From: an uncultured Candidatus Saccharibacteria bacterium
Lineage (GTDB): Bacteria; Patescibacteriota; JACMRA01
DNA length: 64,000 nt
Direction: 5' to 3'
Assembly: GCA_964631275.1 (NCBI GenBank)
Contig: CAZVWQ010000004.1
Coordinates: 11,788-75,787 of the forward strand
Positions 829 to 60,430 of this stretch are shown one piece after another. The notes under the pieces are model-generated. The model saw only the letters and a program-made list of their open reading frames with translations. It searched no databases and was not told the origin of the DNA. Both the position numbers and the translations under genes were made by a program. Within the stretch, counting starts at the first letter, position 1, and each line of letters starts with the position of its first letter.

Positions 829-1039
829 GAAATTATTTAATTAGTAATTATCAACTAACTAGACGCTTTTTCTTAGAGTTTGTCAAATTTGATAAATTTA
901 TTACCTCCACTTTTTGCTAACCAAGTCATGATTAAAATCAATAGATCAAAGACTATAGAAGCTGCTTGATTAGTTATTCTTTAAAACAAACATTTTTAAC
1001 TTCTATTTGCTTCAAAAATTGTATTTTGGAACTACTCTG

Positions 1040-1143
1040 ATACTCACTACAAAGTAAATTCTACAGTTAGTTCAAAATAAAGAAATCAAAAAGAAAATAT
1101 TTGAAAATTCAAAAAGTCCTAATTTGGATTGGTTTGAGCACAA
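1040..1143 (+). repeat. F-family dispersed repeat, diverged copy
   Basis: ...atcaaaaagaaaatatttgaaaattcaaaaagtcctaatttggattggtttgagca aligns with the 3' parts of copies at 6840-6959, 9836-9955, 35243-35388 and 40558-40683. Confidence 0.5.
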
Positions 1144-1194
1144 CGACTGTATACAAAATTATATTTGTATTTTTATGTGGAACGTATTAAGAAT

Positions 1195-1938
1195 CTAGAA
1201 AATGATACTAGTAATAGGTGGAACTGGCGTTTCAGGCTTACTAATTATAACTGGCTGCAGGTTAGAGTTTGAAAAATCTGGAGCTGTAGAATCTGTAGAA
1301 TCAAAATTAAGCTTTTGCTTATCTTCTAGTGCTTTATTGGTATTAGAAAGTTCCTCATCACCAGGAGTAAGATTAGACTTATCATCATTAGTGATAAAAA
1401 ACGATTCAGAAAAAAATTCAGATAAGTTCGTAAAGTTATCAAGTGGTATTAAATCTAAAACTAAATCATCAAAATCAGCATCATAACCATCTTCAAAAAA
1501 TATTCTTAAGACTCCATTTTTATTTTCTATGATTACATTTTCTTTGTTTGTAGAATAAACTTCTGAAAGGGCACCAGCATATTTAGGATAGATTTTTATG
1601 ACTAGCTTATCACCATCAGCAAGACTAAACTGATACTCTTCAAGCTTGCTATATTGGCTTGAAATCTCTATTTCTTCATCGTTTACAATCAAGCTTAACC
1701 TCCCTCCTTTACTATCTTGAGAATACTTTTTTAGTAAAAACTCACCATTTATTTTTGATTCTAATTGCCTAGAAGTGTTAACTATAACTTTGTCATTTAA
1801 ATCTATAATTTGATCAAGGTCATTAGCAAAAAGATAAACGCTACTAAAGTTAAACAAATTCAGAAACAAAGCCAAGCTAAGTACAGAGCAAAAAGTAAAC
1901 AAAAAAACCACAACGATAAATTTAATTTTTGTAACCAT
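1195..1938 (-). CDS. hypothetical secreted/membrane-anchored protein
   Basis: 247-aa ORF with hydrophobic N-terminal segment (FIVVVFLFTFCSVLSLALFL). The acidic motif FFEDGYDADFDDLVLDL recalls DUF4114-type domains (from memory only). Confidence 0.5.
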   Translation of the reverse strand: MVTKIKFIVVVFLFTFCSVLSLALFLNLFNFSSVYLFANDLDQIIDLNDKVIVNTSRQLESKINGEFLLKKYSQDSKGGRLSLIVNDEEIEISSQYSKLEEYQFSLADGDKLVIKIYPKYAGALSEVYSTNKENVIIENKNGVLRIFFEDGYDADFDDLVLDLIPLDNFTNLSEFFSESFFITNDDKSNLTPGDEELSNTNKALEDKQKLNFDSTDSTAPDFSNSNLQPVIISKPETPVPPITSIIF

Positions 1939-2095
1939 TTATAATAACGCTCACTTATTTTAATAAGTAAGTGAAATGTCTATCACAGTTAATATTTTTT
2001 GTCAATTATTATAAGCAATTTAAAAATGCGATTAAAAACTATTTGACTATATTAGTAGTATTCATTAGGAGCCTTTTATAAAGGAATTATTTATA

Positions 2096-2618
2096 TGAAA
2101 AAATATCTTGCTAGCCTAGCAGCCATAGTAATTATTTTGGTTTTTGGCTTTTTGGCTTTTAGCCGTGGATTTTTTTACCAGAAAAAAATAATAAATATTC
2201 CAAGAATAGTCCTGAATATACAATTATTCAAATAAATGAAGCCTCAAAAGAAGGTAGCTACCAAAAACTAAATGAATATATAAACTTTGAAGAAATAGTA
2301 AGAAATTTTACTGAACAAGAGCTAGGAGATAGTTTAAACAACGAAGAAATAAAACTAAACGAGCAAGAAAAACAACAATTTATAGATCAGACAATTAACG
2401 ATACCTTGGTTACCTACAAACAAAAAGCTGAAAATATGAATCTTTTTAACGAATTAAATATAGATGATATAAAAATCCAAGAAACCCAAAAGTTTACAAT
2501 AGAAAGTTTAGTTAATGAAGGCAAGGAAAAATATTATTTTCGTAAAACTCAAGATAAATGGGAAATGTATAAGATAGAGTTAATTGAGTCAGATACAGTT
2601 GGTATTAGTGCAAACTAA
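2096..2618 (+). pseudogene. small membrane-anchored protein gene split by a +1 frameshift in homopolymer tracts
   Basis: ATG at 2096 encodes MKKYLASLAAIVIILVFGFLAFSRGFF... and stops at about 2236. The frame of ORF 2406..2618 is open back to 2163, so the two frames overlap across T7 (2170-2176) and A7 (2182-2188). Confidence 0.4.
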
Positions 2619-2967
2619 ACTCTAATTTTTTTGGAAGTAGCCCTTTTTTTAGAAAACAATTTGCCTTTGTTTGTTTTAAGTAAAAAGTATTAAATTTGTA
2701 AAAATTTTTATATTCTGTAAGGTTTTGAGGCATGTTTAATTAAAAAAGATTAATACAAAAGAGACAAAATTATCACTAAAATTGACAAAGAAATTAAATA
2801 AAATGATTTTTAAGGAATTAGTTTTTGTTAAATATTTTTTTGAACTTTTATAATTTATAGCAGTTTCTTACTAAATTTAGATAAATCCCCAACTCTATAG
2901 TTATTTTTAGAATACTCTAAGAGTCCTAAAATATCTAATTGTGTATGGATCAGCTTGTAATTGATTA

Positions 2968-3074
2968 TATACTAAACTGTTAACTACTCAGTGAGTTTTT
3001 CTGACTGTAACTTCTTTTTTTTAACCAAACTAAAACCTTCAGTTAAATCATAATTTTGTTAGCACTTGGGTATA
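2968..3074 (+). repeat. A-family MITE-like repeat (about 105 bp)
   Basis: tatactaaactgttaactactcagtgag...ttagcacttgggtata. Termini form an imperfect ~19-bp TIR (TATACTAAACTGTTAACTA vs TATACCCAAGTGCTAACAA). Other copies at 6661, 12447, 14315, 28166 and 31854. Confidence 0.8.
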
Positions 3075-3081
3075 ACAATCG

Positions 3082-5179: not shown

Positions 5180-5271
5180 ATAATCACATCTTAAAACTTA
5201 TTTTTACTGCTGATTAATATCGATTTATGGGGTTATAAGTTTTGTAAATTTGAGTTATAGGACAAGACTAA
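5180..5271 (-). repeat. B-family MITE-like repeat (about 90 bp)
   Basis: ataatcacatcttaaaac...tttgtaaatttgagttataggacaagactaa. Family TIR is TTAGTCTTGTCCCATAAC vs ATAATCATGTCTCAAAAC (about 13/18). Confidence 0.8.
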
Positions 5272-5282
5272 TAAATCCTTTA

Positions 5283-5337
5283 TCTAAGTTAAATTATTAA
5301 CGGGTAATTACGGTAACGATTAGCGGCAAGGGTATAA
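5283..5337 (-). repeat. C-family repeat, right half only
   Basis: ttaacgggtaattacggtaacgattagcggcaagggtataa matches the ends of full copies at 17750, 21142, 42788 and 46770. Overlaps the last codons and stop of ORF 5320..6549. Confidence 0.75.
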
Positions 5338-6611: not shown

Positions 6612-6660
6612 TATACCCAATCCCTTACCATTAACCTAAATTTAGCTCTGCATAAGGGAA
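6612..6660 (-). repeat. C-family repeat, left half only, abutting an A-family copy
   Basis: tatacccaatcccttaccattaacctaaatttagctctgcataagggaa, followed directly by the A copy at 6661. Confidence 0.7.
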
Positions 6661-6770
6661 TATACTAAACTGTTAGTTACTCAGTGAGTTTTTCTGATTG
6701 TTTTTTTTAATGAAACTAAAACCTTCAGTTAAATTCCTTCAGTTAAATTATAATTGCTATGAAATTGATA
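6661..6770 (+). repeat. A-family repeat with internal duplication and degenerate 3' end
   Basis: tatactaaactgttagttactcagtgag...aaaaccttcagttaaattccttcagttaaatt (ccttcagttaaatt occurs twice). Confidence 0.7.
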
Positions 6771-6839
6771 TTTTTCTTATATACAAGAGATAAATTGATT
6801 TACTTTTTTAATTATAAGGTAAGATTAATATTATACTCC

Positions 6840-6959
6840 ATACAAGCCAAATTTCAGTTTTTCTTGAAGTTTAAATCTCCATTTTAGCTAGACTTAATTA
6901 GCATCAAAAAGTATTTTAAAAATTAAAAAAGCCCTAGTTTGAATTGGTTTGAGTATAAA
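6840..6959 (+). repeat. F-family dispersed repeat (about 120-145 bp)
   Basis: caagccaaatttcagtttttcttgaagtttaaat...catcaaaaagtattttaaaaattaaaaaagccctagtttgaattggtttgagtataaa. Confidence 0.7.
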
Positions 6960-8253: not shown

Positions 8254-8579
8254 AAGAATATTTTTTAAGACTACCTAGCAATAGTAGATTTCTACTAAAT
8301 AAACTAAAATATAGTTTTAAATTAAATTAAACTAAACTATAAAAATATAGTTTTTAGGTCAAACTTTAAAATAGTCTTACCTTGCCACTCAAAAAAATAA
8401 CCTATTTATTTTAAATTATAAAGAACATTGAATTTGCAAAAACTTACCATTTTTGTTTGGTGTTAATCAAAAAAAAGATTTTTGAAAGGTTTTGAGATAA
8501 AATTAATGAAACTGTAATTAATTAGCCAAAATAGAATTTTAAAATTTCAATCTGCAATAGATTTGGTTAGTTAAAAAAC

Positions 8580-9403: not shown

Positions 9404-9492
9404 TTTATGTCTCAAAATCTATTTTTGGAGTTAATTAACCTTTGTTTCATGGGTTTAAAAATTTACAAATTTAAGTTTTAGAATAAGACTAA
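9404..9492 (-). repeat. B-family repeat
   Basis: tttatgtctcaaaatctattttt...aaatttacaaatttaagttttagaataagactaa. Begins about 30 nt upstream of the ValRS-fragment ATG. Confidence 0.75.
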
Positions 9493-9835
9493 TGTTTTGT
9501 TTAGGTATTAGTGGTTTAATATAGCATCTTTGAATTTTTGCAATTTTTTAAGAAAATATTTAATATAGTAAGTTTTACAATAAAATATCTATTTTTAATA
9601 GCAAAATTGATTTTTTGCAAAAGCTTTGATTTTTGGTCTAAAATCATATACACTTACACGCAACAAAAGGAAGTTAATTTATAAATAGTCTTATCCTAAA
9701 ATATTTATTTTAATTTTACCTTAAAATGATATATGCAAAACTATCAAAATTGGCAAGTTTTTCTATAAAATTTAAACCTGTTTTAGATTTTGGTTTAAGC
9801 TCGAGTTTAACTTCTGATTAATATTTATACTTAAT

Positions 9836-9955
9836 GTAGAGCAAATCTTCAGTTTTTTTGGAATCTAAACTTGGGTTTCAATTAGATTAAAATAAACATC
9901 AAAAAGAAATATCTAAAAATTAAAAAAGTTCTAATTTGGATTGATTTTGGTATAA
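9836..9955 (+). repeat. F-family repeat
   Basis: gagcaaatcttcagtttttttggaatctaaac...catcaaaaagaaatatctaaaaattaaaaaagttctaatttggattgattttggtataa. Confidence 0.7.
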
Positions 9956-9962
9956 CTTAGGA

Positions 9963-10054
9963 TTAGTCTTGCCCCATAACTCAAATTTACAAAACTTTAG
10001 CCCCATAAAATGGATATTAATCAACAGTAAAAATAGGTTTTTAGACATGATTAT
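9963..10054 (+). repeat. B-family repeat
   Basis: ttagtcttgccccataactcaaatttacaaaactttagccccataaaatggatattaatcaacagtaaaaataggtttttagacatgattat. Confidence 0.8.
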
Positions 10055-10275
10055 TTTAGTTCAAAAATCAACTCAAACTCAAATTATATTCCTGTACTAG
10101 CTTTATCTCATAATTTTCTAAAAATATTTATTTTTTTTGATCAACAAACATAAAAGTGATAAGTTTTTGTAAGTTTAGTTTTTTATTTTAAAATAAACAA
10201 AAAATAGGTTGTTTTTTTGAGTAATAAAACAAATTTAGTCTAAAATTACCATTTATCAGTAATAAAAAAGCAAAG

Positions 10276-11055: not shown

Positions 11056-11809
11056 TAATAATTAGTTAGGTTTAGATCAGGTTTATTTTTTTAGGATTAC
11101 GTCTTTAGGTTAATTATTTTTTAGGTAGTTTTTTTAAAAAGAAATCCTAAGTTCCTGTAATATTGTAATTTGTGAGTTGGTTTAATATCGGCAGACTAAA
11201 TTAGTTTTCTATAAAAATTTATTTGAAATTTAATAACCAATCTTTGGTATTTAATAAATTATAGTGCCTGCTTTATGGCAAATTGCTATTAAATAATCAG
11301 TCGTATCCACAACTAGTAAAAATTAACCCTTTTCTTTTTATAAAAATAAAAATTAGAGCTAAATTACTATTTTTTGTTTATTTTGTAACTATAAACCTGC
11401 CTCTACTTGCGTAAAGTAAAATAACTACCATTGTTATTGACACACGTACCTATAAACGTAATTTAAGTCGTTAAATTTGTTATTTTTGTAAAAGTTGGTA
11501 AAGACTTATTGACCAAATATGCTATTTGAAATTTATTTTGAGACATAAAACAGTATATAAATTACTTAAGACAAGGCAAAAAGATAGATTTTAATAAATT
11601 ATAAATAATAAATAAGCAATTTTAAGTAGATTTTTAGTAAAAATAAAAGGCTATAACCTCAATTATAGTTTCTTAATTGTTATTTTAAAAAACCACCTAA
11701 GTCAAATCTTGACAACTTCTAATTCTTGAGTAATTGATTACAAATGGTAGATTGGCTTTATTAAAATTATTAATATAAAAAACTAATAAAAAACTAAAGT
11801 ATACACTCA

Positions 11810-11935
11810 AATCAATCCAAATTAAAGCTTTTTAAGATTTTAGAATGTATTAAGTTAATTGTATTTATAGCTAATTCTATATATAATATTTGGACTTTTA
11901 TATCTTCAAGTTTTCTTTAAACTAAATTTGTAGCT
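11810..11935 (-). repeat. F-family repeat, inverted orientation
   Basis: tatacactcaaatcaatccaaattaaagctttttaagatttt... is the reverse complement pattern of ...aaaaagttttaatttaaattgatttgagtataa. Confidence 0.55.
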
Positions 11936-12274
11936 AATAATTTGTCTAATTTTTAATTTAGAATTGCTTATATTAAGTGTTAACTAAAACTAAAATTCTG
12001 ATTTCTAAAAAACTAAGGTTTGCTTTGTCCTTAAATAAAGTATTAAGAATCTACTCATATATAACAGTTTTACCTTGTTACTAAAAAACAATCTATTTTT
12101 TGTTTATTTTATGAGTAAAAGTGTAATTACGCAAAATTATTACTTTTAGGTACCAGTCTGGCTTCATCACTCAAAAAAAATAAACCATTTTTACTTATTT
12201 AATAAAAAAAATAAAGATTACTAGAAGGTTTTGAGCTAAGACTAATTTTGTTTTAGAAACTTCCTGACTATTTT

Positions 12275-12349: not shown

Positions 12350-12446
12350 GTAGATTAATTTTTGAAAACTTTAAAAACAAATTTAAGAAGTACTTTATTT
12401 TACGAAATAAAGTATAGTTAGGCGATATACAATTTAAGTATTTACA

Positions 12447-12550
12447 TATATTAACTGCCAACTAATCAGTTGAGTTTTTGGCTCTGTTTTCTTTATTTAG
12501 TCAAACTAAAACCTCCAGTTAAATTATCATTTAGTTAGCATTTGAGTATA
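12447..12550 (+). repeat. A-family repeat, 5' end diverged
   Basis: atattaactgccaactaatcagttgag...aaaacctccagttaaattatcatttagttagcatttgagtata. Confidence 0.7.
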
Positions 12551-12887
12551 TTTTAACTTTTTTCAGGGCAGGCTTAATAGGCTTGCTAAACTAATGACTT
12601 GTCTAAATTTAGTATGGAATTGCAATACACGTAGCTTTCTTATAGGACCGACTTACCGACTTGGAATTTTTTAGCAATTTAAAGTAAAAATTAAGAAATC
12701 ATTTGTAGTTGGTTTTAAACAATAAATCTAAAATATTTGTTTTAAAATAAAGGAAAATACCAATCTCAATCTTAGCTGAAGAATAATTTACTTTACAAGA
12801 ACTTAATTTTTTGTCAGGATCCAATTAGTAATGAGATTAGGCAGATAAATACTGTTGCTTAGTCTGATTTGCAATTTTATTTTATTT

Positions 12888-14117: not shown

Positions 14118-14314
14118 AATAGCTCTAAATTAATTAAACCGCACGTTAAAAACTTATTGACCAGCTGATTAATAGCCTAAAGCTGAAACCTATTTTTTTC
14201 CTTAAAATAAAAACTTATTACTTTCTCTTAATAAGAAGAAAGGCCTAAAAGCCAGAGGGTTTACTTGTTTTGTAATCTTCCATAACTTACCTGCAATAAA
14301 ACAAGAACTTGGTT

Positions 14315-14419
14315 TATACTAAACTGTTAACTACTCAGTGATTTTTTTAACTCTGTTTTCTTTATTTAATCAGACTAAAACCTTCGTCTAAGTCATAATT
14401 TAGTTAGCATTTGGGTATA
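14315..14419 (+). repeat. A-family repeat
   Basis: tatactaaactgttaactactcagtgattttttt...aaaaccttcgtctaagtcataatttagttagcatttgggtata. Confidence 0.8.
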
Positions 14420-14786
14420 ATTTTGAGTAAAGAGGCAGAGAATGATTTGGTTCAGATTTTTGTTTACACTTTAGAAAAATTTGCTGAAAATTCAAGCTGA
14501 GTTATACTTAGGATAGTTAGACAGTTTCTTAAAAGAACTATCTATAAATAAGACTTCTGCAAAAATTTTCTTCTTTGATTATTAGTGTAGTAAGCTTCAT
14601 GAGTCATGATTTATACCATAATTAAGACTCTTAGAATACTCATTGCCAAACAAACCCCAAATTCACCCATTTAACTCATTCTTATATCTCATCCACCAAT
14701 CCTGTATAATTCTAAATCGAACAGACTTTTCTGATTATCATTGGCAAAAGTCAAGAAGGAGCTCTTACTTAAATTATAGCATACTA

Positions 14787-16457: not shown

Positions 16458-16624
16458 ATTTTCCAAGTATATATAAGCTAGCTTAAGTGGCATAGATTAT
16501 GCACTTGATAATCTAGAAATTATACCCACTTACCATCTAAACTAGGATTAGGTTAGTTTATTCTGCATGGCTTAAAAAATATCATTATCTGAGTACAAAG
16601 TACTGTGCCTGGCAATAAACAAAG

Positions 16625-16704
16625 CTTCCGCAGACACTACTATATTTTGTATTTAATACTTAACTAAAGCTACATTTAGTAGTAAAATTCAATTCTTGCG
16701 GAAG
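16625..16704 (-). repeat. E-family hairpin repeat, inverted orientation
   Basis: CTTCCGCAgacactactatatttt...ctacatttagtagtaaaattcaattctTGCGGAAG. The interior is the reverse complement of the E1/E2 pattern. Confidence 0.7.
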
Positions 16705-16800
16705 TCTTGTAAACTTGTCCCATAACTCAAATTTACAAAACTTTGGCCTCATAAAATGAATATTAATCAACAGTAAAAATAGGTTTTGAGACATGATTAT
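16703..16800 (+). repeat. B-family repeat
   Basis: agtcttgtaaacttgtcccataactcaaatttacaaaactttggcctcataaaatgaatattaatcaacagtaaaaataggttttgagacatgattat. Confidence 0.8.
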
Positions 16801-17631: not shown

Positions 17632-17749
17632 TTTATTTATTTTATATTTAGACTAAAAAAAATTAAAAATTATTTTATATGTTTATTTTATAAAAAATTT
17701 GGCAGTAGAACTAAACTTAATTCAATTTTAAAGTTATCTTGTGACTTTT

Positions 17750-17873
17750 TATACCCTCCCTGTTAAGTCATTATAGTAATTATCCGTTAAGAATTTACCT
17801 TAAATAATGAGTTTGTTTATGAAGAGCTAAATTTAGGGTAATAGTAAACACGGATTGTGTATAATCAAAAATA
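17750..17873 (+). repeat. C-family MITE-like repeat, full length
   Basis: tataccctccctgttaagtcattatagtaattatccgttaagaattt...gaagagctaaatttagggtaatagtaaacacggattgtgtata. Confidence 0.8.
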
Positions 17874-18296
17874 CAAATTTTGAAAGTAAGTTGAGTATAT
17901 AACTAAGCTATGAGGATTTAGACATTCTAAGTATTCTAAATTTTCTTATAAAACAATCTAAAATTTAATAACTTGTAAAAGTTCAGTGTAGAATTGTTAT
18001 ATGTACTTAAATAAAATACTCTATCCTCTGTTTATTTTATATATAACCACTACTTTAACTACTACTTTTGCTTTTTTAAAAAATAACTATCCTAAAAAAG
18101 ATTTTAAGGTTAGACTAGTATTTTTTTTATATCAAGTTTAACATTTTTATTCCTAAAAATCTAATAAATAGAATTAAAAGTAAAACACCCGTCTAAATCT
18201 GCAATTTTATACTAAAAATAAACAAAAAATTAAGTTTTTTACAAAGTAGTGAGGTAAGTTTAGTATTATTAATACTGAGCTTAGATCAATTTTTTC

Positions 18297-19641: not shown

Positions 19642-21141
19642 AATATAAAAATATTTAGGGTTTGAAAAATAAGATTGTTCTCTCCATTTTCTGAATACGA
19701 AAAAACGTATTAGATGTAAGAGACAGTTATATTTGAATAAAATATTTCTATACTTTTGTCAAGTTTTTGGTACATTTTTTTGTTGTATTTTTAGTACATT
19801 CCTTTGTACTGCATAGTACTGCATATTTTGTAGTTTTTATTGATTAAATAAGTATTTTTGGTAACTTAAAGGAGAGGGCTAGGTTTATTATTTTTGTTAA
19901 CCAATAGAGATTTTTTGATCTAAATGTTCTTTAAGTATATTTTTGGTCAAAAAGTTTGTTAAAAAGTTTTTTGGTTTATTTTTTTGAACAACAAGATAAG
20001 TTTATTTATGAGTCTAAATAATATCAAACATTACCAAGATTTGACGAAAATAAAAAAGGTGGCTATTTTTAATCTACTAAATCTAGCGGTGGTCCTTTAG
20101 CGATTTGCTATAATTTTTTTAGACCTAGCTCAGCTTAAAATACCAAAAAGGTCGAAGATGTCTTCTGAGTTGAGTTAGACTAACCAAGCCAACCTGCAGT
20201 GCGATAATTATACTCAAGTTAATTAAAATTAAGATTTTTTAATTTTCAAATTTTACACACCTCAATACTCACATTATTTTCTTTAGCCTAATTTTATCTA
20301 CTTTTTAGCTTAGACTCTTTGGGCTAATAAATCAATAAAAAATATAATTATACTGAGGGCAGTGTTTTTTGTATTAGGCTTCTTACATTGCATGCTTTAA
20401 GTATTGGTCTTATCTCAAAATAAGTTAAAAATAACTAGTTTCTCTTTTTAAATAGATAAAAATTTATATTTTAGTTGAATTAGTAGTTTATTGTTTATCA
20501 AATAAAAGATAGATAAACTATTTTCTAAATCTTTCTAAATTAATATACTAGTTACTAAGTTACACAAAAAATTTACTTTATATAGCTATATTTAACGGGT
20601 TATTACTAGCCTACCTAAGCTTAGCTCTTCATTAAAAACAAATCTTTTGTTTAAACTAAATTAATTAATTAATAGCTAATTCTGTAACTATTAGTAAAAA
20701 GGATATAAAGAATAAAACAAATTTTTTCTAATTACTAAAGCAAGATTAGCCCTTCCTTGTTACTCAAAAATAACCTATTTTTCGTCTATTTATAAATAAA
20801 TATTTTTGAAAGGTTTTTAAACAAGACTATAATTTTAGCTAATTATAATACTGTTTAAGTTTAAGGATTACCTAAACTACATTTTATAGTTTAGTTTAAT
20901 TTATTAATGTTTTAGTTTATTTTATAGAAGTCTGTTAAAATAGGCTGATTCTACACTAAATTTTGACAAATTATTAGCTATCGAGACTTTGTTAAAACAA
21001 TTTTAGATATGCAAAATGCCTAAGTTACACCTAAATTAGTTATAAGTACCAAAATCTTTTTCTGAATTTTACTAAAATTTATTTTATGAGTTTGAAATTT
21101 TGTAAATTTAAGCTATAAAACAAGATTATTATACAAAATCT

Positions 21142-21256
21142 TATACCCCTTCCACTATCTTTGCGGTAATTACCCGTTAGAATTATGCTTATAATAAAAG
21201 AATTTATTTGCTTATAAAGAGCCAAATCTAGGGTAATAGTAAACGGATTGGGTAAA
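21142..21256 (+). repeat. C-family repeat, full length, right TIR degenerate
   Basis: tataccccttccactatctttgcggtaattacccgttagaatt...aaagagccaaatctagggtaatagtaaacggattgggtaaa. Confidence 0.8.
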
Positions 21257-21343
21257 ATATTACTAGACTGACCTGAACTTTAGCTAAATTATATACTAAA
21301 ACTTATACTAAAACTTTAAATTTTAAATTAACATAACCCCTCT

Positions 21344-23581: not shown

Positions 23582-23684
23582 ATTTTGTTTTTAAATATTT
23601 ACCTTAAGTAAGAGACTAGTCTTACCTCAAAATAAGCTCAAAATAAGTAGTTTCTTCCTTGAAATAAACAAAAATTAATTATTT

Positions 23685-23887
23685 TATACCCTTTGAGCTA
23701 ATCGTTATGGTAATTACTGTTAAGAATTTATCTTAAATTAAGATTTATTTGCTTATAAAAGCTAAATTTAGGGTAATAATAATCATGTCTCAAAACCTAT
23801 TTTACTACTGGTTAATCCCTTTTTATAGGATCATAAGTTTTGTAAATTTGAGTTATGGGATAAGACTAATAAACGGATTGGCTATAA
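23685..23887 (+). repeat. C-family repeat interrupted by a nested B-family element
   Basis: Left part tataccctttgagctaatcgttatggtaattactgttaag...agggtaata (to 23778). Right part taaacggattggctataa (23870-23887). Confidence 0.75.
23779..23869 (-). repeat. B-family repeat nested inside C5
   Basis: ataatcatgtctcaaaacctattttactactggttaatccc...tttgtaaatttgagttatgggataagactaa, with TA on both sides (23777-23778 and 23870-23871). Confidence 0.8.
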
Positions 23888-23925
23888 ATTCGGAAATTGT
23901 GTAAAACTAAAATAGAGATCAACCA

Positions 23926-24852: not shown

Positions 24853-25001
24853 ATACACCCTTACCGCTAATCGTTATGCCATTAGCCTTGTTAAGAATTC
24901 TTTTTAAACAAGGAACTTGTTTCTTGTAAGGAGAGAATTTTCAGGTTTCCTGAAATCTATTTATTTAGGATGGCTTAGGGAGAATAACGGTTTGGGTATA
25001 A
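24853..25001 (+). repeat. C-family repeat variant with expanded interior
   Basis: atacacccttaccgctaatcgttatgccatt...ataacggtttgggtataa. The interior has its own small inverted repeats (tttcagg/cctgaaa). Confidence 0.65.
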
Positions 25002-25034
25002 GTATTACAACCAAGATCAAAAAAGGTTACAGCT

Positions 25035-25240
25035 TATACCCTTTACACTAATCGTTACGGTAATTCGTTAAGGAAAATAAGGGATTTATAGCGAAATTGT
25101 ATTTAATTTAGATAACTTAGTTAGTAAAAATATTATTTAAATGAACTTTTTAAGAAACAAAATGTCTAGGTTAAATATAGACTAGCTATATTTGCCTATG
25201 AAGAGCTAAATTTAGAGTAATAGTAAATGAATTGGCTATA
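25035..25240 (+). repeat. C-family repeat variant (about 206 bp), in tandem with the previous copy
   Basis: tataccctttacactaatcgttacggtaattcgttaagg...cctatgaagagctaaatttagagtaatagtaaatgaattggctata. Confidence 0.65.
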
Positions 25241-25443
25241 GTTTATACTTCTAAAATAGTTTATACTGATTTTTCCTAAATCTTATGGCTTAATTTCTGA
25301 TTTGCCCTTTATCAATAGATTTCATCAAAAAACACTTGATTTGCGGAAGAGTTTGTGGAAACTTGCCACTTTTACTTTGCTTAATAAATTTTTTTTGAAA
25401 GGTTTTGCATGATCAATTTTTGATTAGTTTTAAGGAGGTTGTA

Positions 25444-25977: not shown

Positions 25978-26083
25978 GAATCAGTTGTTATTTTTTAAAA
26001 TTTTTTATTTTTATAGTTCCCGCACAAATACTATATTTAGTATTTTGAATATAGATTTATATCAATTTAAATAAAACTTAAAT

Positions 26084-26194
26084 TATACTGGTTTCGTAGT
26101 CAAATTTGATAACAGGCAGACTTAGTTCAATTTTGAAGCTATTTTATGGCTTTTTAAAATTCAAAAATGTTAATTTAGAAGTGAATTTAGCATA
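26084..26194 (+). repeat. G-family repeat, diverged
   Basis: tatactggtttcgtagtcaaatttgataacaggcagacttagttcaattttgaagctattttatggctttttaaaattcaaaaatg... aligns with 32143-32256, 47144-47258 and 50524-50642. Confidence 0.65.
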
Positions 26195-26338
26195 GAAGAT
26201 ATTTGATTACCTGTCTTTTTAAATAAATATTTTTAACTTTTAGTTGTTTCAAAAATCGTAATTTATAGTTGTTTCTAACCTAATCTTTTAAATTTTTTTA
26301 TTCAAAATCAGCTATAAACCATTTTTAATTTTTAGTTC

Positions 26339-26392
26339 TATACTCAAATTAGGACTTTTTGAATTTTTGAAGACGTCTTTTTGATATTTCAA
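26339..26392 (-). repeat. F-family repeat, 3' portion, inverted
   Basis: tatactcaaattaggactttttgaatttttgaagacgtctttttgatatttc. Directly abuts the E2 repeat. Confidence 0.6.
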
Positions 26393-26394
26393 AG

Positions 26395-26484
26395 CCTCCG
26401 CAAAAAATCAATTTTACTCCTAAATGTAGATATTTTATCGTCAAATTTACTATATTTAGTATTTTTCTTAGAAAACTGCGGAAG
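26395..26484 (+). repeat. E-family long-hairpin repeat
   Basis: CCTCCGCAaaaaatcaattttactcctaaatgtagatattttatcgtcaaatttactatatttagtatttttcttagaaaacTGCGGAAG. Confidence 0.75.
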
Positions 26485-26577
26485 TTTTAATTTATTTAAA
26501 CCTAACTGTAACCCAAACCTAGACTATAAAAAACTAAAATTTGCTTTGCGATGAGTATAAAAGTCCTTGAGATAAGT

Positions 26578-27699: not shown

Positions 27700-27867
27700 G
27701 TGATTCCTAAAAAATTATTTATTTTTAATATGTACAAATTTAAATGTTTTAGCAATTTATTGCTTTGCTATGTAGCCATATTTTTATTTGTATAGTTGAT
27801 CTATACTAAACTCTTCCGCAAATCAAGTGTTTTTTCAGATTTACAAAACTTTGATCCTATAAAATAA

Positions 27868-34700: not shown

Positions 34701-35242
34701 TATGTTTTAATTATATTTTTATTTCAGAATTTTTGTAAAAATTTCTTATGCTAGATAAACTCCTAAACAAAAACTTTAACTTATCTTAGCTTTAACTCTA
34801 TAAAGTAAAGTAAATTTTAGTTTTTTTGAGTCTAAATTTTGATTTCAGCTACATCTAAGTAATATCAAAGGCAAGTACTTACAAACTAAAAAACCTTAGT
34901 TTGAATTTTTAAATACTTATTTCTAATGAAAGCCTCTATACAAAGATAAGTAATAAATCACTTTTTTAATTCTATAAGATTAGCTTTGTCTGATTTCAAA
35001 AAAATAATCTGTTTTTGTTTATTTTCAAAAAAGTACTAATTTTTATGCAAAACTATCACTTTTATTGTATTTAAAAAAAATTTATGGAAGCAAAGGATTA
35101 TACAAAGTAGGGGACTGTTTTAGGTGTATACTTACCTTATAAAAGCTATCTGCAATCTACCCTGATAAAACTACTTTTATTGTCTTTTTGATAGTAAGAT
35201 TTATTAGAAAGTAGCTAAGACTTTTTCAAAAATATTTTTGTA

Positions 35243-35388
35243 CTTGCCACAAACCAAATTTTAGTTTTTTTAGAATTTAAATTTTACCTTTAATTAGGTC
35301 TAATCAAGATCAAAAAGGTCTAATCAAGATCAAAAACCAATCATATAAAAACTAAAAAAGTTTTAATTTAAATTGATTTGAGTATAAA
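35243..35388 (+). repeat. F-family repeat containing a perfect 20-bp tandem duplication
   Basis: ccacaaaccaaattttagtttttttagaatttaaat...gttttaatttaaattgatttgagtataaa. The unit ggtctaatcaagatcaaaaa occurs at 35297-35316 and again at 35317-35336. Confidence 0.75.
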
Positions 35389-37103: not shown

Positions 37104-38107
37104 TTAAAAACCCAAATATCGAACTCCAGACTTGATTAAATAGATACTAAAAAGCAGGGTATGAATCTATGAAAAGTAAAAACATCCCTGCTATAGAAGA
37201 ATTAACTTCTAACAAAGATTTGTCTAGTATAGATACTGAAGCAACTGATTTCTTAAACCAAGGTTTTAAATCTAAAACAGGTAGACCTCCTAAGATGAAT
37301 TTTAGTGATTTGATATATTGCCTAGAACTTAAAAGAAAATACTCTTGTGAAACTTGGATTGGATTGTATAGGTGTTTAGAAGATAAAGTTAAGGTTTATA
37401 GATCAAGTCTTAAATTACCTACATATGCTAATTTTCTTAAATCAATAAAAAGATTGATATTTTACTTATTTAGATTAATTACTTATCAAACTAAAGTAAA
37501 TAGACAACTATTTCTAAAACAAGATGTTAGAATAGCTTTTGTAGATTCAACGCCTTTATCTGTTTGTAATATTAAAAGATCTAGTAGACACAAGACTATG
37601 AATAAAATTGGTAATGAAAATAATCAGAAATTTAAGCCTAATTATTCAAAATCTACTATGGGTTGGTACTATGGATACAAACTACATCTTACTTGTGATT
37701 GGGAAACAAAAGAAGTTATTGATTTTCAATTCTCAGATAGTAAATTAGATGATAGACAGTATCTAAAAGAAATAATTAAAAAACAAAGATAAATTCTACA
37801 ATACACAGACAATGTTTGTAGCTGATAAAGGTTATCAAGCAAAATGGCTAGATGAATTAGCTAAAGAAACAAACAATTACCTAATTACAGGTAAAAAGAA
37901 AAGTAAAAATCAAAAAACCTTAGCTTCACAATTTGATATTTATCTACTCCACACCAGAGCTAGAATAGAATCTGTGTTTTCTAATCTTAAACTTAATTGT
38001 TTTCTTACAAGCACCAGGTCTAGATCAGTACTAGGTTATCTCTTTAATTATGTACTTTCTATGTATTATTTAGTGTTTAAGAATAGTTTCGATATTTAGG
38101 TATTTAA
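37104..38107 (+). mobile_element. IS982/IS5-like insertion sequence (about 1.0 kb) with imperfect TIRs
   Basis: Left end TTAAAAACCCAAATATCGAACT (37104-). Reverse complement of the right end is TTAAATACCTAAATATCGAAACT (-38107). Contains a two-piece DDE transposase. No clear target duplication seen. Confidence 0.75.
37169..38099 (+). pseudogene. DDE_Tnp_1-type (IS982/IS5-like) transposase split by a +1 frameshift
   Basis: ORF 37169..37792 (AFVDSTPLSVCNIKRSSRH, GWYYGYKLHLTCD, FSDSKLDDR) and ORF 37812..38099 (FVADKGY...RARIESVFSNLK). The second frame is open from 37776, so the overlap spans the A6 run 37778-37783. Confidence 0.75.
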
Positions 38108-40475: not shown

Positions 40476-40557
40476 ATTTTTGGTTGAGTGGTTTTAGAAA
40501 AATGTTTAATTTAGTATTAATTTTTAATCTGCTTAAGAATAGATTGAGATTTTTATG

Positions 40558-40683
40558 TTCAACACAAATCAAATTTTAGTTTTTTTTGAAATTTAAATTT
40601 TTCGTTTTAGTTATGCCTAATCAGTGTTAAAAAGAAGTATTTGAAAATTAAAAAGCCTTAATTTGGGTTGATTTGAGTATAAA
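40558..40683 (+). repeat. F-family repeat
   Basis: caacacaaatcaaattttagttttttttgaaatttaaat...aaaaagaagtatttgaaaattaaaaagccttaatttgggttgatttgagtataaa. Confidence 0.75.
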
Positions 40684-41100
40684 AAGAATTTTATGACTAA
40701 CCCATATACGACTTATATATTCCGAACATTCTAAATTTGCTTAAAAAAGTTTTTTTATGTTTAATAACTTGTCAAAATTTAGTGTAGGATTGCTAAAAAT
40801 ATCCAAAATATCTAAGTCATATATATGAAATAAATAAAATAAATAGAATTCTTTAAACTTGCTTTATTATATCAAAAAAATAAGCTATTTTTTGTTTATT
40901 TTAAAGTAAAAAGTGCCAAGCTCATGTAAAAAGACTTTTACTTTATTTAATGAAAAAATAAAGATTTTTGAAAGATTTTTGAAAGATTTTAAGGCAAGAC
41001 TTTTGCTTTAGTGACTTATTTAAAAGAAAGAGTTTTCTAATTCTTATTGAATTTTTAACAAAGCAAAAAATTGACAAATCTAAAAAATCCTAAAGTTAGT

Positions 41101-41891: not shown

Positions 41892-42716
<825 letters not shown>

Positions 42717-42787
42717 TTTAATATATAGGCTAGTCTAGATTTAATTTTAACAAGTTATTAGCTACTAAGCCTTTTTTTAATTAAGTT

Positions 42788-42898
42788 TATACCAGTCCAT
42801 TTACTACTTACCAAAAATTTAACTTTTCATAAGCAAATAAATCTTTTATTTAAGTTAAACTCTTAACGGGTAATTATTATAAATAAATGGTGTGTAAA
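42788..42898 (-). repeat. C-family repeat
   Basis: tataccagtccatttactacttaccaaaaatttaacttttcataagcaaataaatcttttatttaagttaaactcttaacgggtaatt... Lies between the ligA fragment and the pheS stop. Confidence 0.7.
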
Positions 42899-43910: not shown

Positions 43911-44646
43911 TAAACAGAATTTTATAATTATCTTGGCGATATTAGTTTAGATATCCTTATCCCTTAAAGGGTTAATAAATAAGCCTTTAGAAGTTAGAAT
44001 GTTTGTCTAAGTTTAAGATTGGTTAATTATGTTTATTTTTAGGATTTATTTAAAAATTTATATAATAAGTTAACTGAAATTAGGTTTTTTGAATATTTGA
44101 ATATTTTTTTAATTTTGATTAAACTAAGCTAAAAACAAATTTTAACCTCTAAAAAACTGAAACTTGTTTTTATAAATAAAAAGATAAATTGAGTGTTTTT
44201 TTGTAGCTATGGAGGCTATTATTGATTATAAAGTTATAATTTTTATAAAATTGATCAAAAACTACCTGTAGATTTATTGATTTAAAAACACTAAATATAG
44301 TACTTAATAGGGAAATTCTGAAAGTTATAAATAATTTACCAAACTTCTCTAATTATATTGTTTTAGACTAGCTTAAGTCAGTATTTAATCAATAGATGCA
44401 AGCTTTTTTTAAAAAATTTTAGTATACTTGTTTTTATTAATTACTCTAAAGTTGTCAAAAAATAGTAAACTATATATAATATTTTATCAAAAAATATCGA
44501 TTAGTTAACTAAAAATCAAATCTTTGCTTATTAAAAACTAATTTAGTTTAGGTTTATTGTCTTTTTTTAAAAAAGTACTATCAATAAGCTAATTATTAGT
44601 CATAAAAAATTAAGCAACTATCAAAAACAAAAAATAAAGATTACTC

Positions 44647-46692: not shown

Positions 46693-46693
46693 A

Positions 46694-46760
46694 TTAGTCT
46701 TGTCCATAACTCAAATTTACAAAACTTTGATCCCGTAAAATAGGTTTCGAGACATGATTA
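46694..46760 (+). repeat. B-family repeat with internal deletion
   Basis: ttagtcttgtccataactcaaatttacaaaactttgatcccgtaaaataggtttcgagacatgatta. Begins 2 nt after the stop codon at 46690-46692. Confidence 0.8.
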
Positions 46761-46769
46761 CCTTTTAAT

Positions 46770-46888
46770 CTTAACTCAATCCCTTTATTACCCTAAATTT
46801 AGCTCTTCATAAGGAAATAATCTTTTATTTAAGGCTAAAGTGTCTTAACGGGTAGGGTAATTACTGCGACGATAGCGGCAAGGTATAA
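46770..46888 (-). repeat. C-family repeat
   Basis: ...ccctttattaccctaaatttagctcttcataaggaaataatcttttatttaaggctaaagtgtcttaacgggtagggtaattactgcgacgatagcggcaaggtataa. Confidence 0.75.
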
Positions 46889-47003
46889 GCTTTATAGTAT
46901 CAAATTTGATTAAGGAACTGGTATAAAAAAATAACTAGTAATAACGTCTCAAAACCTATTTTTACTGTTGATATGTTTATTTACTAATTCCTTACAGAAT
47001 CCA

Positions 47004-47258
47004 TTTGAAATTTTTTACCAATTTAAAACTAAAAATTAAGAAATGGTTGCATTTAATTTTAAATAAAAAAAATCTAAAGTTTTAATTAAGAACAATTCTA
47101 AATTACAATTTTTGAAACAACTAAAAGTTAAAAATCTACATTCTATACCATTTTATAACCAAATTTAAGATCAAAGCTAAGCTTAATTCGATTCTAAAGG
47201 TACTTTGTAGCCTTTTTAAGATTTAAAAATGTAAATTTTGAAACTGAATTGAATATAA
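47004..47258 (+). repeat. spacer module plus G-family repeat (diverged copy of 31959-32256)
   Basis: tttgaaattttttaccaatttaaaactaaaaattaag...tataccattttataaccaaatttaagatcaaagctaagcttaattcg...gaaactgaattgaatataa. Same module order as the right arm of the 408-bp repeat, but clearly diverged and shorter. Confidence 0.75.
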
Positions 47259-50384: not shown

Positions 50385-50523
50385 TTTTTTGAATAGTATT
50401 TCAGTCCTTGTAACTGACAAAATCTTTTGTTTTTGGTTATTTTTATAATAACTATACTTGTAATTTTTACAATTATATTTTAACTCGCTTTATTTTATAG
50501 ATAAAACTTAGTTTAGATTTAAT

Positions 50524-50642
50524 TATACCCATTCCATAACCAAATTTAACATCAAAGCTAAGCTTAATTTGATTTTAAAGGTATTTGGTAGCTTTTTAAG
50601 ATTAAAAAATGCAAATTTTGAAACTAACTGGATTGAGCATAA
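50524..50642 (+). repeat. G-family repeat
   Basis: tatacccattccataaccaaatttaacatcaaagctaagcttaatttgattttaaaggtatttggtagctttttaagattaaaaaatgcaaattttgaaactaactggattgagcataa. Confidence 0.8.
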
Positions 50643-51103
50643 TTTTGTATAAGTTTATACAGATTTATACGAGAATAGGTATAATTTAGTTGAGGCCAAA
50701 ATTTAGATTCTAAAAAAAGCTGAAATTTACATTGCAGTGAGTATAAATAGGTTTTTGAAGGTGATTATTTCTTAAATACTCTTAGATGAGGTTAATTTTT
50801 ATTTATACCTACCTTAAATTCTTCATTTTAAAGACTTTATTTACATAAAAACTATAATAGCAAAAGGCTAAACTATAAAAATATTATAATTAAACTATCT
50901 AGTCGGTCTACAAAATTAAAACAAAATTCTATCAAGGATAATACTCAAAACTCGTTATATCAAAGGTAAACTATAATAAGGTTTAAAAAATTAAAACAAA
51001 ACTTGCAAAAAAGTATTTTTTGTTATACAATCATAATCGCCTTAATATAAAAATCAGGTAAAACATAAATAAATAGGTGTAAAAAAACCTAAACAAAAAT
51101 AAA

Positions 51104-55552: not shown

Positions 55553-55642
55553 TTAGTTTTATTCCATAACTCAGATTTTATAAAATTTTGATCTCAAAAA
55601 ATTCCTGTTAATCAACCTAAAAATACTTTTTGAAACATGATA
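55553..55642 (+). repeat. B-family repeat, diverged
   Basis: ttagttttattccataactcagattttataaaattttgatctcaaaaaattcctgttaatcaacctaaaaatactttttgaaacatgata. Confidence 0.65.
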
Positions 55643-58764: not shown

Positions 58765-58774
58765 ATAAGCTTAG

Positions 58775-60061
58775 TTGCAAAAATATTTCTACAAATTAGG
58801 CCATATTCCTAGTCTTGGTGTCTGGGAGTTTTTTGAGTTACAAGGGCAGGCGGAGGTATCAAATACGAGGGATCAAATTTTTGATCTTCAAAAAAAACCT
58901 CAATCTGCTAGGCAAGAAAACCCTTTGTCAGGATCAGGCTTACATTTTGATAAGGATTTTGATAGCAAATTAAATACAAAAAAAGTAGGTTTTGAAACCA
59001 AAGAAGCTGAGTTTAATGATCATTTTCTTCTTTCAGATAGATATCTAGATGTTAATAAAACCGGATCTTTGGTTTTTTCTGGGATTAATATTTGCTCCTA
59101 CCCGATTAGTAGAGAATCTGGGAATAAAGATTTTTGGCAAACAAAATTAGATTTTGACTTGGCTAAAACATTTTCTGAAGTTCCAAAAAAACTAGGAGTA
59201 GCTACAACTAAAGATTTTAAAATCAAAGAAATAGTTGATTTATTTAAAAAACTCGGAGTAAAAAAAGTTAACGCCCTTAAGCCTGGTAAATTTCCTAATT
59301 TTGGTAATTTTAGGAATACTCCTAACTGGGTAATTTTTTATAAGCTTAAAGGACAAGTTTATTTTGCTAAAATTTTGGATTACTATAATCAAGGATTTTG
59401 GTCAGAGTTGGATTTGAATCTTCCAAAGAATGACATGCGGCGCGGTATAATTAATCTCAAACTAGCTAGAAGTTTGAATAACCTTACTAATAAAAAGATT
59501 ATTTGGGATCCGTTTTGTGGAGTCGGCAGGAACGCCATTAGTAGCTTGGATCGAAAAGATAGATTTTTACTTTCGGATATTGACTTAGAAGGGATTAAAG
59601 ATGCAAAAATTAACTTAGATTTAGCTAGAGAAAAATATTTTCAGAACAGTGTTTCCATTGATTTTGAAACCAAAGATGCTACTAAGGTTGAGCAGTTTAA
59701 CTTTTTAACTAGGGTTAATCCTCAAGATTTAGCGATTGTTACGGAGGGAACATTGGGAACTAATTTTGGATCCTTTCCAGGATTTCAGACTATCAATTTG
59801 GAATGGGCCAAAGTCTTTAGTTTATGGAAAAAGATAATAACTAAAGCTGAAAAAATAGGTATTTCCGAAATCATCTTTTGCTTGCCTTTTTATCAATACC
59901 AAAACAAAAAGATCATGCCTGAAAAGTCTCAGACCATGAGTTTGATTGCTGGAACGAACTATTGTTTTGTATCTTTTGGTAGCAGATTAGGCGTAGCCTA
60001 TATACGTGAATCATCAATTACCGGCCATTATATCCTAAAATTAACAAAGTTAGAAAGTTAG
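58775..60061 (+). CDS. putative SAM-dependent (Trm11/UPF0020-like) methyltransferase
   Basis: 428 aa with TTG start. MRRGIINLKLARSLNNL...IWDPFCGVGRNAI matches the P..M.P.LAR..VNL...DPFCG.G pattern. Motif IV position reads VTEGTLG rather than DPPYG. Confidence 0.5.
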   Translation: MQKYFYKLGHIPSLGVWEFFELQGQAEVSNTRDQIFDLQKKPQSARQENPLSGSGLHFDKDFDSKLNTKKVGFETKEAEFNDHFLLSDRYLDVNKTGSLVFSGINICSYPISRESGNKDFWQTKLDFDLAKTFSEVPKKLGVATTKDFKIKEIVDLFKKLGVKKVNALKPGKFPNFGNFRNTPNWVIFYKLKGQVYFAKILDYYNQGFWSELDLNLPKNDMRRGIINLKLARSLNNLTNKKIIWDPFCGVGRNAISSLDRKDRFLLSDIDLEGIKDAKINLDLAREKYFQNSVSIDFETKDATKVEQFNFLTRVNPQDLAIVTEGTLGTNFGSFPGFQTINLEWAKVFSLWKKIITKAEKIGISEIIFCLPFYQYQNKKIMPEKSQTMSLIAGTNYCFVSFGSRLGVAYIRESSITGHYILKLTKLES

Positions 60062-60100
60062 AATTTCCTTATTTTAATAGTCTATATCTAATCTGTTTTG

Positions 60101-60191
60101 TATCACCCAAAATTTAGCTCTTCATAAGCAAATAAATCCTTTATTAAACTAAAATTCTTAATGGGTATTGCTAATTAGCAAGAAGGGTATA
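60101..60191 (-). repeat. C-family repeat, diverged
   Basis: tatcacccaaaatttagctcttcataagcaaataaatcctttattaaactaaaattcttaatgggtattgctaattagcaagaagggtata. Confidence 0.7.
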
Positions 60192-60430
60192 TATTTCTCA
60201 AAAAAAATACCTACAAACACAAAATAAAAGGTATGATAATTATAATTTTTACAAAAGCTTATTTTTGAAAGGACTAAAAAAACGAGGCACCTTGTTCCTA
60301 AAAATTAGGAAACTTTTGACTAAACAAAAAAAATAGCATTAAATAGATATATGTGCTCAAATAAAGTTGCAACTTACTTGGGTAGCACATAAGCTTAAAA
60401 TTACAAGTTCCTAACAAAAACAAAATTATT

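Follow-up and report, generated by a model that had tools for sequence, protein, structure and literature searches.

The DNA between the genes of the 64-kb window analyzed here, the whole stretch of 64,000 nucleotides, is strewn with short repeated modules. With a probability of about 0.8, these modules are what remains of miniature, non-autonomous DNA transposons of several families that accumulated between the genes of an uncultured Patescibacteria bacterium. They resemble miniature inverted-repeat transposable elements (MITEs). At least eight families are present, with about 70 decayed copies, and together they give 86 family matches over 60 kb in both orientations. The units are about 90-130 bp long (model lengths 94-146 nt) and hold no credible open reading frames (ORFs). 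Six families have terminal inverted repeats, their copies are many and dispersed, and four copies are nested inside others. In these respects the modules behave as the first-pass annotation, which called them MITE-like, had proposed.

Self-alignment of the window shows repetition far above chance. BLASTN at E<1e-5 gives 184 off-diagonal matches covering 7.3 kb, compared with 0-1 in ten dinucleotide-preserving shuffles. Models for nhmmer were seeded from the families first described (A, B, C, E, F, and G) and iterated on the window. Every copy listed for these six was recovered within a few bases. The searches give 6 loci for A, 10 for B plus one split copy, 13 for C, 4 for E, 11 for F, and 6 for G. 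The extra loci are those of B at 21046, 46937, and 27835/27979 (split), C at 20614, E at 9528, G at 17695/17864 (split), and F at 26484, 34803, 44072, and 50684. What had been mentioned as looser families resolves into H (10 loci), K (6 loci), and three low-copy families.

Copies of one family are often quite different from each other. Median identities within families are 65-81%, and many copies are truncated. The mean column identity in MAFFT alignments is 80% for A and 65% for B. Because identity is this low, most copies appear to be old, and the bloom is probably largely fossil.

The ends of the modules fall into at least three classes of terminal inverted repeat, namely a TATAC class (A, C, F, and G), a B class, and an E class. 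In the TATAC class, the consensus sequences start with (T)TATAC[CT][CA]A and end with the complement, GTATA(A). The inverted ends are 15-22 nt long and the interiors are unrelated. Terminal matches number 15 of 19 positions in A, 12 of 15 in C, and 18 of 22 in F; the inverted ends of G, B, and E measure 12-18 nt and are imperfect. The motif TTATACYCAA, with at most one mismatch, occurs at 52 sites in the window, compared with 20.5 +/- 4.4 expected. Since part of these sites fall in gaps without an annotated module, further elements probably exist.

Family B has the ends TAATCATGTC...GACAAGACTAA, which include the inverted repeat TAATCATGTCTCAAAAC and the reverse complement of TTAGTCTTGTCCCATAAC, and nearly every copy is bounded by TAA...TAA. 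Family E is a long hairpin with the consensus TTAAAACTTCCGCA...TGCGGAAGCTTTGAA; its inverted-repeat class can also be written TTAAAACTTCCGCA...TGCGGAAG. Because B and E carry unrelated inverted repeats and H and K carry none, at least three activities or origins are involved. The original suggestion of one mobilizing activity or one preferred target therefore holds in part. A common TATAC/GTATA terminus is indeed seen in all four consensus sequences for which it was claimed (A, C, G, and F), but it does not extend to B, E, H, and K. As for a preferred target, TA fits the nested junctions best, on two informative cases, and no cognate transposase was found in the window.

Evidence that the modules have moved is provided by the nested copies. 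A C copy (17750-17863) lies in G, a G copy (27869-27981) in B, a B copy (23779-23870) in C, and an E copy (26389-26490) in F. When any of the four inserts is excised in silico, the flanking fragments fuse to one continuous hidden Markov model match to the host family. Because excision restores the interrupted element, these copies show real insertion events.

The junctions also give information about target duplication. When G is removed from B, the host is best restored by cutting 111/113 nt, pointing to a 2-bp duplication of TA. In both nested cases of the TATAC class, scores are best or tied-best when one TA is kept (57.7 versus 52.6 bits and 33.6 versus 28.6 bits without duplication). For B in C, a 90-nt excision restores the host and seven equivalent shifts yield the identical sequence; the boundaries of B therefore carry a 6-nt direct repeat, TAATAA. 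Judging by this junction, B would either duplicate TAA or TAATAA or have TAA within its inverted repeat. Flank listings of the window copies contain no longer direct repeats.

Short-read assemblies of the same organism break at the modules. In four Logan contigs, all eight ends fall within repeat copies. Four of these ends are unexplained by 31-mers repeated inside the window, implying further near-identical copies elsewhere in the genome.

A pattern like this could also be produced without transposition, by local segmental duplication and rearrangement or by mis-assembly of the metagenome. One part of the window does look this way. A 408-bp composite of G, a B fragment, K, and A is present twice in inverted orientation, 3.6 kb apart and with 100% identity. 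It begins exactly at the G terminus and finishes 5 nt beyond the A terminus, an overshoot more readily explained by recombination or gene conversion than by precise transposition. For this pair, clean transposition is less probable than gene conversion or a duplication that was recent and imprecise, and the copy at 27868-28275 is probably the source because both halves of the interrupted B are retained there. The adjacencies G-K and K-A are recurrent as well. The remaining copies are nevertheless only 52-92% identical, about 100 bp long, and spread over 60 kb with precise ends in common, and the nested ones release a restored host upon excision. Mis-assembly conflicts with independent Logan assemblies of two runs, which agree with the window at 100% along 14.7 kb of unique sequence and end precisely where repeats lie. 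Duplication or mis-assembly as the source of the whole pattern is barely plausible. A few local segmental duplications without defined ends, the scenario named at the outset as fatal to transposition, can be rejected save for the 408-bp pair.

The inverted pair brackets a 3.6-kb segment with genes for a nusB-like protein, rpmF (L32), rpmA (L27), rpsI (S9), and an RseP-like M50 protease. The region 27868-32256 could be a segment capable of inversion, or else a pair produced by gene conversion; short-read contigs break inside the repeats.

Junctions between a C half and an A copy occur at 6660 and 31851 as earlier described. The C-derived right halves (6612-6667 and 31812-31851) both begin at an internal (C)TTATG, which resembles the family terminus CTTATAC. 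This sequence might serve as an alternative internal end that produces half elements.

The repeats add up to 7.6 kb, or 11.9% of the window and 35.5% of its non-coding DNA. Outside ORFs lie 96% of the repeat bases; the 248 that touch ORFs each do so at an ORF end. Coding sequence makes up 62.5% of the window when only ORFs of at least 100 aa are counted. Coding and RNA sequence together reach 67.6% once L27, L32, two edge-running genes, a 96-aa ORF (40206-40493), the second transposase fragment, and two tRNAs are added, in agreement with the two thirds first tallied. G+C is 30% along the entire window. Among the 27 gaps of at least 300 bp, 24 carry at least one module. To call these gaps saturated was nevertheless an overstatement, as the median module coverage per gap is 30% and only 7 gaps are at least half repeat.

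A load of this kind is unusually heavy, as had been claimed. The nearest relatives' contigs are 83%, 94%, and 91% coding (hand sums of gene tables), with at most 1-2 repeat pairs per 21 kb; the nearest of all, with 67% identity in prolyl-tRNA synthetase (ProRS), is the one at 83%. An alternative genetic code was tried as the source of the low coding density and rejected. Reading TGA as sense lifts ORF coverage merely from 0.68 to 0.69, so the low density is not a genetic-code artefact. Stop codons are TAA in 27 cases, TAG in 10, and TGA in 3, and no credible gene has an in-frame TGA. No pseudogene remnants were found in the gaps by tblastn with relatives' ORFs or by Pfam on gap ORFs, a small test set. 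These searches gave real small genes only (L27, L32, an NTP transferase, and a paralogue of a WxL-interacting protein).

Repeats between genes may be kept for a function. The modules would then be host-selected cis elements spread by recombination, such as terminators or attenuators, small RNA genes, or relatives of the repetitive extragenic palindromic (REP) sequences and bacterial interspersed mosaic elements (BIMEs). Some observations fit this idea. Two copies of family E fold significantly better than shuffles (z -3.0 and -2.0), and one E copy has changed symmetrically in both arms. In several cases a B or H copy follows closely on the end of a gene, and the mosaic layout is reminiscent of E. 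coli BIMEs. However, 18 of the 20 copies folded as single-stranded DNA (families A, B, C, F, G, and H) show no gain over shuffles (z -1.9 to +1.0). RNAalifold predicts no pairs for F, whose alignment is too divergent. Terminator-like and promoter-like sites are at chance over positions 1-40000 and hardly any lie within repeats. Both orientations relative to flanking genes occur, and the strong decay, truncation, and nesting are unlike elements under selection. Rfam 15 matches two tRNAs and no repeat, even at E<=0.1, and no window protein matches RAYT or Y1-transposase models. With E as a possible exception, the data lend no support to a structural, regulatory, or RNA role, and host selection is a highly unlikely origin for the repeats as a whole.

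The only transposase family found in the window belongs to an IS982-like insertion sequence (IS) at 37110-38101, with inverted ends ACCCAAATATCGAA / ACCTAAATATCGAA. The transposase gene is no longer intact: an in-frame TAA (37790) together with a +1 frameshift leaves ORFs at 37169-37792 and 37797-38099. Intact homologues with 61-69% identity occur in metagenomes. Their boundaries are ACC...GGT in several contexts, with perfect 6-bp duplications in two of them (TTACAA and TTACAT, in the related contigs L013 and L018). IS982 elements presumably end in AC, on the basis of ISfinder and of the boundaries measured here.

Could the TATAC families be deletion derivatives of this element, mobilized by it? 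An IS982-derived MITE is known from Cardinium (PMC9769881). With AC as the anchor, the MITE termini are similar to the ends of the IS, ACCCAAATATCG / ACCTAAATATCG, and to those found in related elements (ACCCCAAT..., ACCTAAAT...). The 3' end of A, TAT-ACCCAAAT, matches the IS end at 8 of 8 positions, and the 3' end of C, both ends of F, and the 3' end of G match at 6 of 8. The similarity ends after the first 8 nt, however. The boundary of the IS is exactly ACC...GGT in four independent contexts, with direct duplications of about 6 bp, whereas three further bases (TAT/ATA) are conserved at the MITE termini, and 6-bp direct repeats are lacking whether the element is taken as AC...GT or as TATAC...GTATA. 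An IS-derived MITE should share both the terminal bases and the duplication length of its parent, and these families share neither in full. The inverted end of the IS recurs nowhere else in the window (3 matches versus 1.3 expected, two belonging to the IS itself), and the window's copy is dead. Descent from the IS982-like element is therefore unlikely. The simplest alternative would be a TA-duplicating enzyme of the IS630/Tc1-mariner type encoded elsewhere.

Around the IS itself, two further features can be seen. The element appears to sit in an older short element with TACAC...GGTATA ends (~37071 and ~38140). Close by, a B-type terminus, TTAGTCTTGTCCC, stands alone at 38144-38158, immediately after the stop of a V-ATPase I-like gene.

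Under the MITE interpretation, families A, C, F, and G were probably mobilized in trans by one transposase recognizing (T)TATAC[CT]CAA. Such an enzyme would insert at TA-containing, AT-rich sites and make a very short duplication, most simply TA, as in MITEs driven by IS630/Tc1-mariner elements. Families B (TAA...TAA) and E (the long hairpin) would be other inverted-repeat classes and hence depend on other transposases, and H and K may be internal pieces of longer elements. Mosaics would arise by repeated insertion into earlier copies, which are AT-rich and rich in TA sites, followed by deletion and truncation. The 408-bp composite would have been duplicated or homogenized recently. The element load, together with truncated housekeeping genes and 68% coding density, suggests relaxed selection against junk DNA in the lineage.

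Several points weigh against the MITE interpretation. Families H and K are without inverted termini. Target duplications are not cleanly resolved, as TA or TATA is indistinguishable from the palindromic terminus itself; nested cases of the TATAC class number only two, and in the C-into-G case the duplication is ambiguous (2-5 nt). No intact transposase with matching ends is encoded in the window, where searches of unannotated ORFs against Pfam, NCBIfam, and PDB sequences found no hidden transposase and no IS630-like gene; the ends of the one IS there do not match the B or E termini. Copy numbers refer to this window, and the DNA available from the organism comprises the window and four short contigs. 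The nearest relative is not syntenic at its 67% ProRS identity and offers no orthologous empty site for comparison. Finally, recognizable repeat is only 35% of the non-coding DNA, compared with ~13 kb of other non-coding sequence.

The host can be placed by its proteins. Among 5.8 billion proteins, none exceeds 67% identity to the window's ProRS (gene at 49101-50384). Named matches are Candidatus Parcubacteria/Paceibacterota, Candidatus Gracilibacteria, and the Patescibacteria group; two matches labelled 'Thermales' share 90% clusters with Gracilibacteria entries. Relatives of the transposase bear the same labels. Because both proteins point the same way, the organism is, on protein similarity, an uncultured member of the Patescibacteria (candidate phyla radiation, CPR). 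Composition had suggested Rickettsia and its palindromic elements, a reading that the ProRS and transposase relatives rule out.

Exact copies of the window's genes were found only on short Logan contigs of SRR7048222 and SRR7048223, which match the window at 100%. The repeat families themselves seem to be confined to the same lineage. Family models find none in the relatives' contigs (L006-L009, L011-L013, and L018-L021). The families are also absent from GTDB representative genomes, where four chance 21-mers occur in Flavobacteriales only, from JGI metagenomes (two scans), and, apart from chance matches, from IMG/VR. On these searches, the bloom is specific to this lineage.

Repeats of other kinds do occur in the relatives. 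The nearest relative's contig, L006, has one 113-bp direct repeat pair (16662-16773 and 19509-19620; 73% identity), which flanks topA, is unrelated to the window families, and is the only repeat in its 21 kb. In L018, a contig from a Patescibacteria relative (JGI 3300076002), a 3.7-kb block of three different transposase genes (IS982-like, DDE_Tnp_4, and DDE_Tnp_1) lies between exact direct repeats of 60 bp (9604-9663 and 13404-13463). A third relative has an S8-peptidase gene with about four tandem 303-bp repeats of 88-96% identity (L008, 13717-14922).

Several known systems resemble the window's repeats. The closest in design are the Correia elements (Correia repeat enclosed elements, CREE) of Neisseria and the repeat units of pneumococcus (RUP) of Streptococcus pneumoniae. 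Both are non-coding, about 100-150 bp long, and have imperfect terminal inverted repeats starting TATA-. They are found in many intergenic copies, insert at TA, and have a cognate transposase that is absent or acts in trans. The window's repeats have no sequence similarity to either. They also differ in having at least four families with one terminus, more decay (65-81% identity), a density several-fold higher (11.9% of DNA), and a TA duplication merely inferred from two nested cases.

Cardinium is closest in context. In the Cardinium endosymbiont of Oedothorax gibbosus, an IS982-derived MITE has an inverted repeat close to that of its parent, ISCca4, and intact IS copies are present (PMC9769881). 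The two cases share a lineage-specific MITE expansion in a genome rich in repeats, pseudogenized IS copies, and an IS982-family element with partly similar ends (PMC9769881). In the window, unlike Cardinium, 6-8 terminal bases agree, three extra bases are added, there is no ~6-bp duplication, and the sole IS is broken.

Rickettsia palindromic elements likewise form several palindromic families of about 100-150 bp in a small AT-rich genome of lowish coding density. They are notable for in-frame insertion into protein-coding genes, whereas the window's repeats touch ORFs with so few bases and only at the ends, belong to an unrelated host phylum, and show no sequence similarity. Enterobacterial REP/BIME sequences, mobilized by RAYT, combine a few recurring modules into intergenic mosaics whose order and orientation vary. 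Each REP unit is a hairpin of 20-40 bp with GTAG as its conserved tetranucleotide, and a RAYT gene is associated with these sequences. The window's modules instead are about 100 bp long, mostly without folding excess, and have transposon-type inverted termini; no RAYT gene is present in the window. Tourist-type MITEs and the IS5 family make 3-bp TAA/TTA duplications, which recalls the TAA...TAA bounds of B, and the DDE_Tnp_4 gene beside the IS982-like element in L018 adds to the parallel. The TAA may nevertheless be part of the B inverted repeat, the nested B shows 6-nt TAATAA, and no such transposase is present in the window.

The elements work as ordinary bacterial MITEs. The families are new and the kind is known; the unusual part is the host group, along with the density. 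Patescibacteria are usually described as bacteria whose streamlined genomes, some 1 Mb in size, are densely coding and poor in mobile elements. Here, one third of the window's DNA is non-coding and about 12% is decayed MITE-like repeat, which indicates that selection against selfish DNA can collapse in CPR bacteria too. The lineage is a natural system in which to ask which change of population or lifestyle allows such a bloom. The breaks in short-read contigs are a warning for the assembly and binning of metagenome-assembled genomes, and the defined termini (TATACYCAA, TAATCATGTC, and TTAAAACTTCCGCA) can be used to seek the mobilizing transposases.

Genes have decayed as well. The valS gene is reduced to the anticodon-binding domain and C-terminal arm (8580-9374), and the 900 bp upstream are 59% repeats. 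The ligA gene ends inside the adenylation domain (41910-42716) and is followed by a C copy and then pheS. Both remnants are bordered by repeat clusters. By analogy, the gene fragments, dead IS, and 68% coding density resemble an early reductive stage of host-restricted bacteria such as Cardinium (PMC9769881). A literature search found no report of this pattern for Patescibacteria, no paper tying MITEs, or low coding density with repeats, to the group, and no mention of SRR7048222.

A tentative proposal is that this may be the first CPR lineage recognized while its decaying genome accumulates junk. Pointing to this are at least eight MITE families (~12% of the DNA), a dead IS, truncated valS and ligA, and ~68% coding compared with 83-94% in relatives. 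In other bacteria, such a pattern is the mark of a lifestyle that has recently become host-restricted, with small populations. If the same is true here, already reduced CPR genomes can undergo a second round of reductive evolution, and the TATAC terminus would define a transposase-MITE system particular to this lineage.

Table 1. Repeat copies and related features of the window. Coordinates come from nhmmer unless otherwise stated; 12 of the 13 C loci and 6 of the 10 H loci are given.
Feature	Position	Strand	Basis
A, full length, TATACTAAACTG...TTGGGTATA	2967..3075	+	nhmmer E=1e-28, alignment
A, 3' truncated, abuts C right half	6659..6745	+	nhmmer, junction
A	12446..12551	+	nhmmer
A	14314..14421	+	nhmmer
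A, within 408-bp duplicated unit	28165..28272	+	nhmmer
A, within inverted twin of 408-bp unit	31852..31959	-	nhmmer
B, TAATCATGTC...GACAAGACTAA	5180..5271	+	nhmmer
B, diverged	9406..9492	+	nhmmer
B	9962..10054	-	nhmmer
B	16710..16800	-	nhmmer
B, diverged	21046..21128	+	nhmmer
B inside C copy; boundaries with 6-nt direct repeat TAATAA	23779..23870	+	excision test
B with 11-nt internal insertion	31506..31609	+	nhmmer
B with internal deletion; directly after stop codon of ORF 44647-46692	46693..46760	-	nhmmer
B, 5' fragment	46937..46972	+	nhmmer
B	55553..55641	-	nhmmer
B split by G (B parts 27835-27868 and 27979-28011, G 27869-27988)	27835..28011	-	excision test
C left half, overlaps 3' end of ORF 5320-6549	5267..5337	-	nhmmer
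C right half joined to A	6612..6667	-	nhmmer
C inside G copy	17749..17862	+	nhmmer, excision test
C, 3' truncated	20614..20708	-	nhmmer
C, full length	21140..21258	+	nhmmer
C interrupted by B (C parts 23684-23778 and ~23871-23888)	23684..23888	+	excision test
C variant of ~150 bp, ATACACCC...GGGTATA	24853..25001	+	nhmmer
C with unrelated ~75-bp internal insertion	25033..25244	+	nhmmer
C right half joined to A, opposite orientation	31812..31851	-	nhmmer
C between truncated ligA fragment and pheS	42786..42892	-	nhmmer
C	46767..46888	-	nhmmer
C	60081..60191	-	nhmmer
E, long hairpin AAGCTTCCGCA...TGCGGAAGTTTTAA	3079..3181	+	nhmmer, DNA fold z=-3.0
E, both arms symmetrically changed, CTTTTGCA...TGCAAAAA	9528..9629	-	nhmmer
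E	16622..16709	-	nhmmer
E inside F copy	26389..26490	+	nhmmer, excision test, fold z=-2.0
F with internal deletion	1040..1141	+	nhmmer
F, full length, palindromic, model match on both strands	6831..6959	.	nhmmer
F, full length	9824..9955	.	nhmmer
F terminal fragment	11803..11846	-	nhmmer
F split by E (F parts 26342-26388 and 26491-26561)	26342..26561	-	nhmmer, excision test
F without termini	34803..34907	+	nhmmer
F with internal tandem duplication	35237..35388	.	nhmmer
F, full length	40552..40683	.	nhmmer
F without termini	44072..44170	-	nhmmer
F 5' half	50684..50747	-	nhmmer
G split by C (G parts 17695-17751 and 17864-17898)	17695..17898	+	excision test
G	26080..26194	+	nhmmer
G inside B; outer end of 408-bp unit	27869..27988	-	nhmmer, excision test
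G in inverted twin of 408-bp unit	32136..32255	+	nhmmer
G; Logan contig L005 terminates within	47140..47256	+	nhmmer
G; Logan contig L005 terminates within	50519..50640	+	nhmmer
H, ~125 bp, no inverted termini	8374..8491	+	nhmmer
H	10116..10232	-	nhmmer
H, two collinear pieces	12068..12231	+	nhmmer
H	33665..33780	-	nhmmer
H	34983..35089	+	nhmmer
H	40858..40977	+	nhmmer
K fragment	980..1041	+	nhmmer
K 3' part	12661..12750	-	nhmmer
K adjoining G	26213..26344	+	nhmmer
K within 408-bp unit	28020..28164	+	nhmmer
K within inverted twin	31960..32104	-	nhmmer
K adjoining G	47005..47144	-	nhmmer
408-bp composite (G, B fragment, K, A), identical to inverted twin	27868..28275	+	self-comparison
Inverted twin of 408-bp composite (32256-31849)	31849..32256	-	self-comparison
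IS982-like insertion sequence, ~990 bp	37110..38101	+	NCBIfam NF033520 for transposase gene

Other genes of the window have features of their own. At 21344-23581, one 745-aa ORF joins a complete sigma-70 factor (regions 1.2-4, residues 286-549) to a TsaE domain (605-706), which may be a real fusion or the result of a lost stop codon. A V/A-type ATPase is represented by a subunit I-like gene (38159-40192) and subunit D (41101-41688). The operon seems to be interrupted by repeats, as a gap of about 600 bp (40494-41100) holds F and H copies. WxL and WxL-interacting proteins are cell-surface families best known from Firmicutes. Positions 60431-64000 encode a WxL-domain protein (60431-61084) and two paralogous WxL-interacting proteins (61329-62612 and 62730-63998) with about 65% nucleotide identity.

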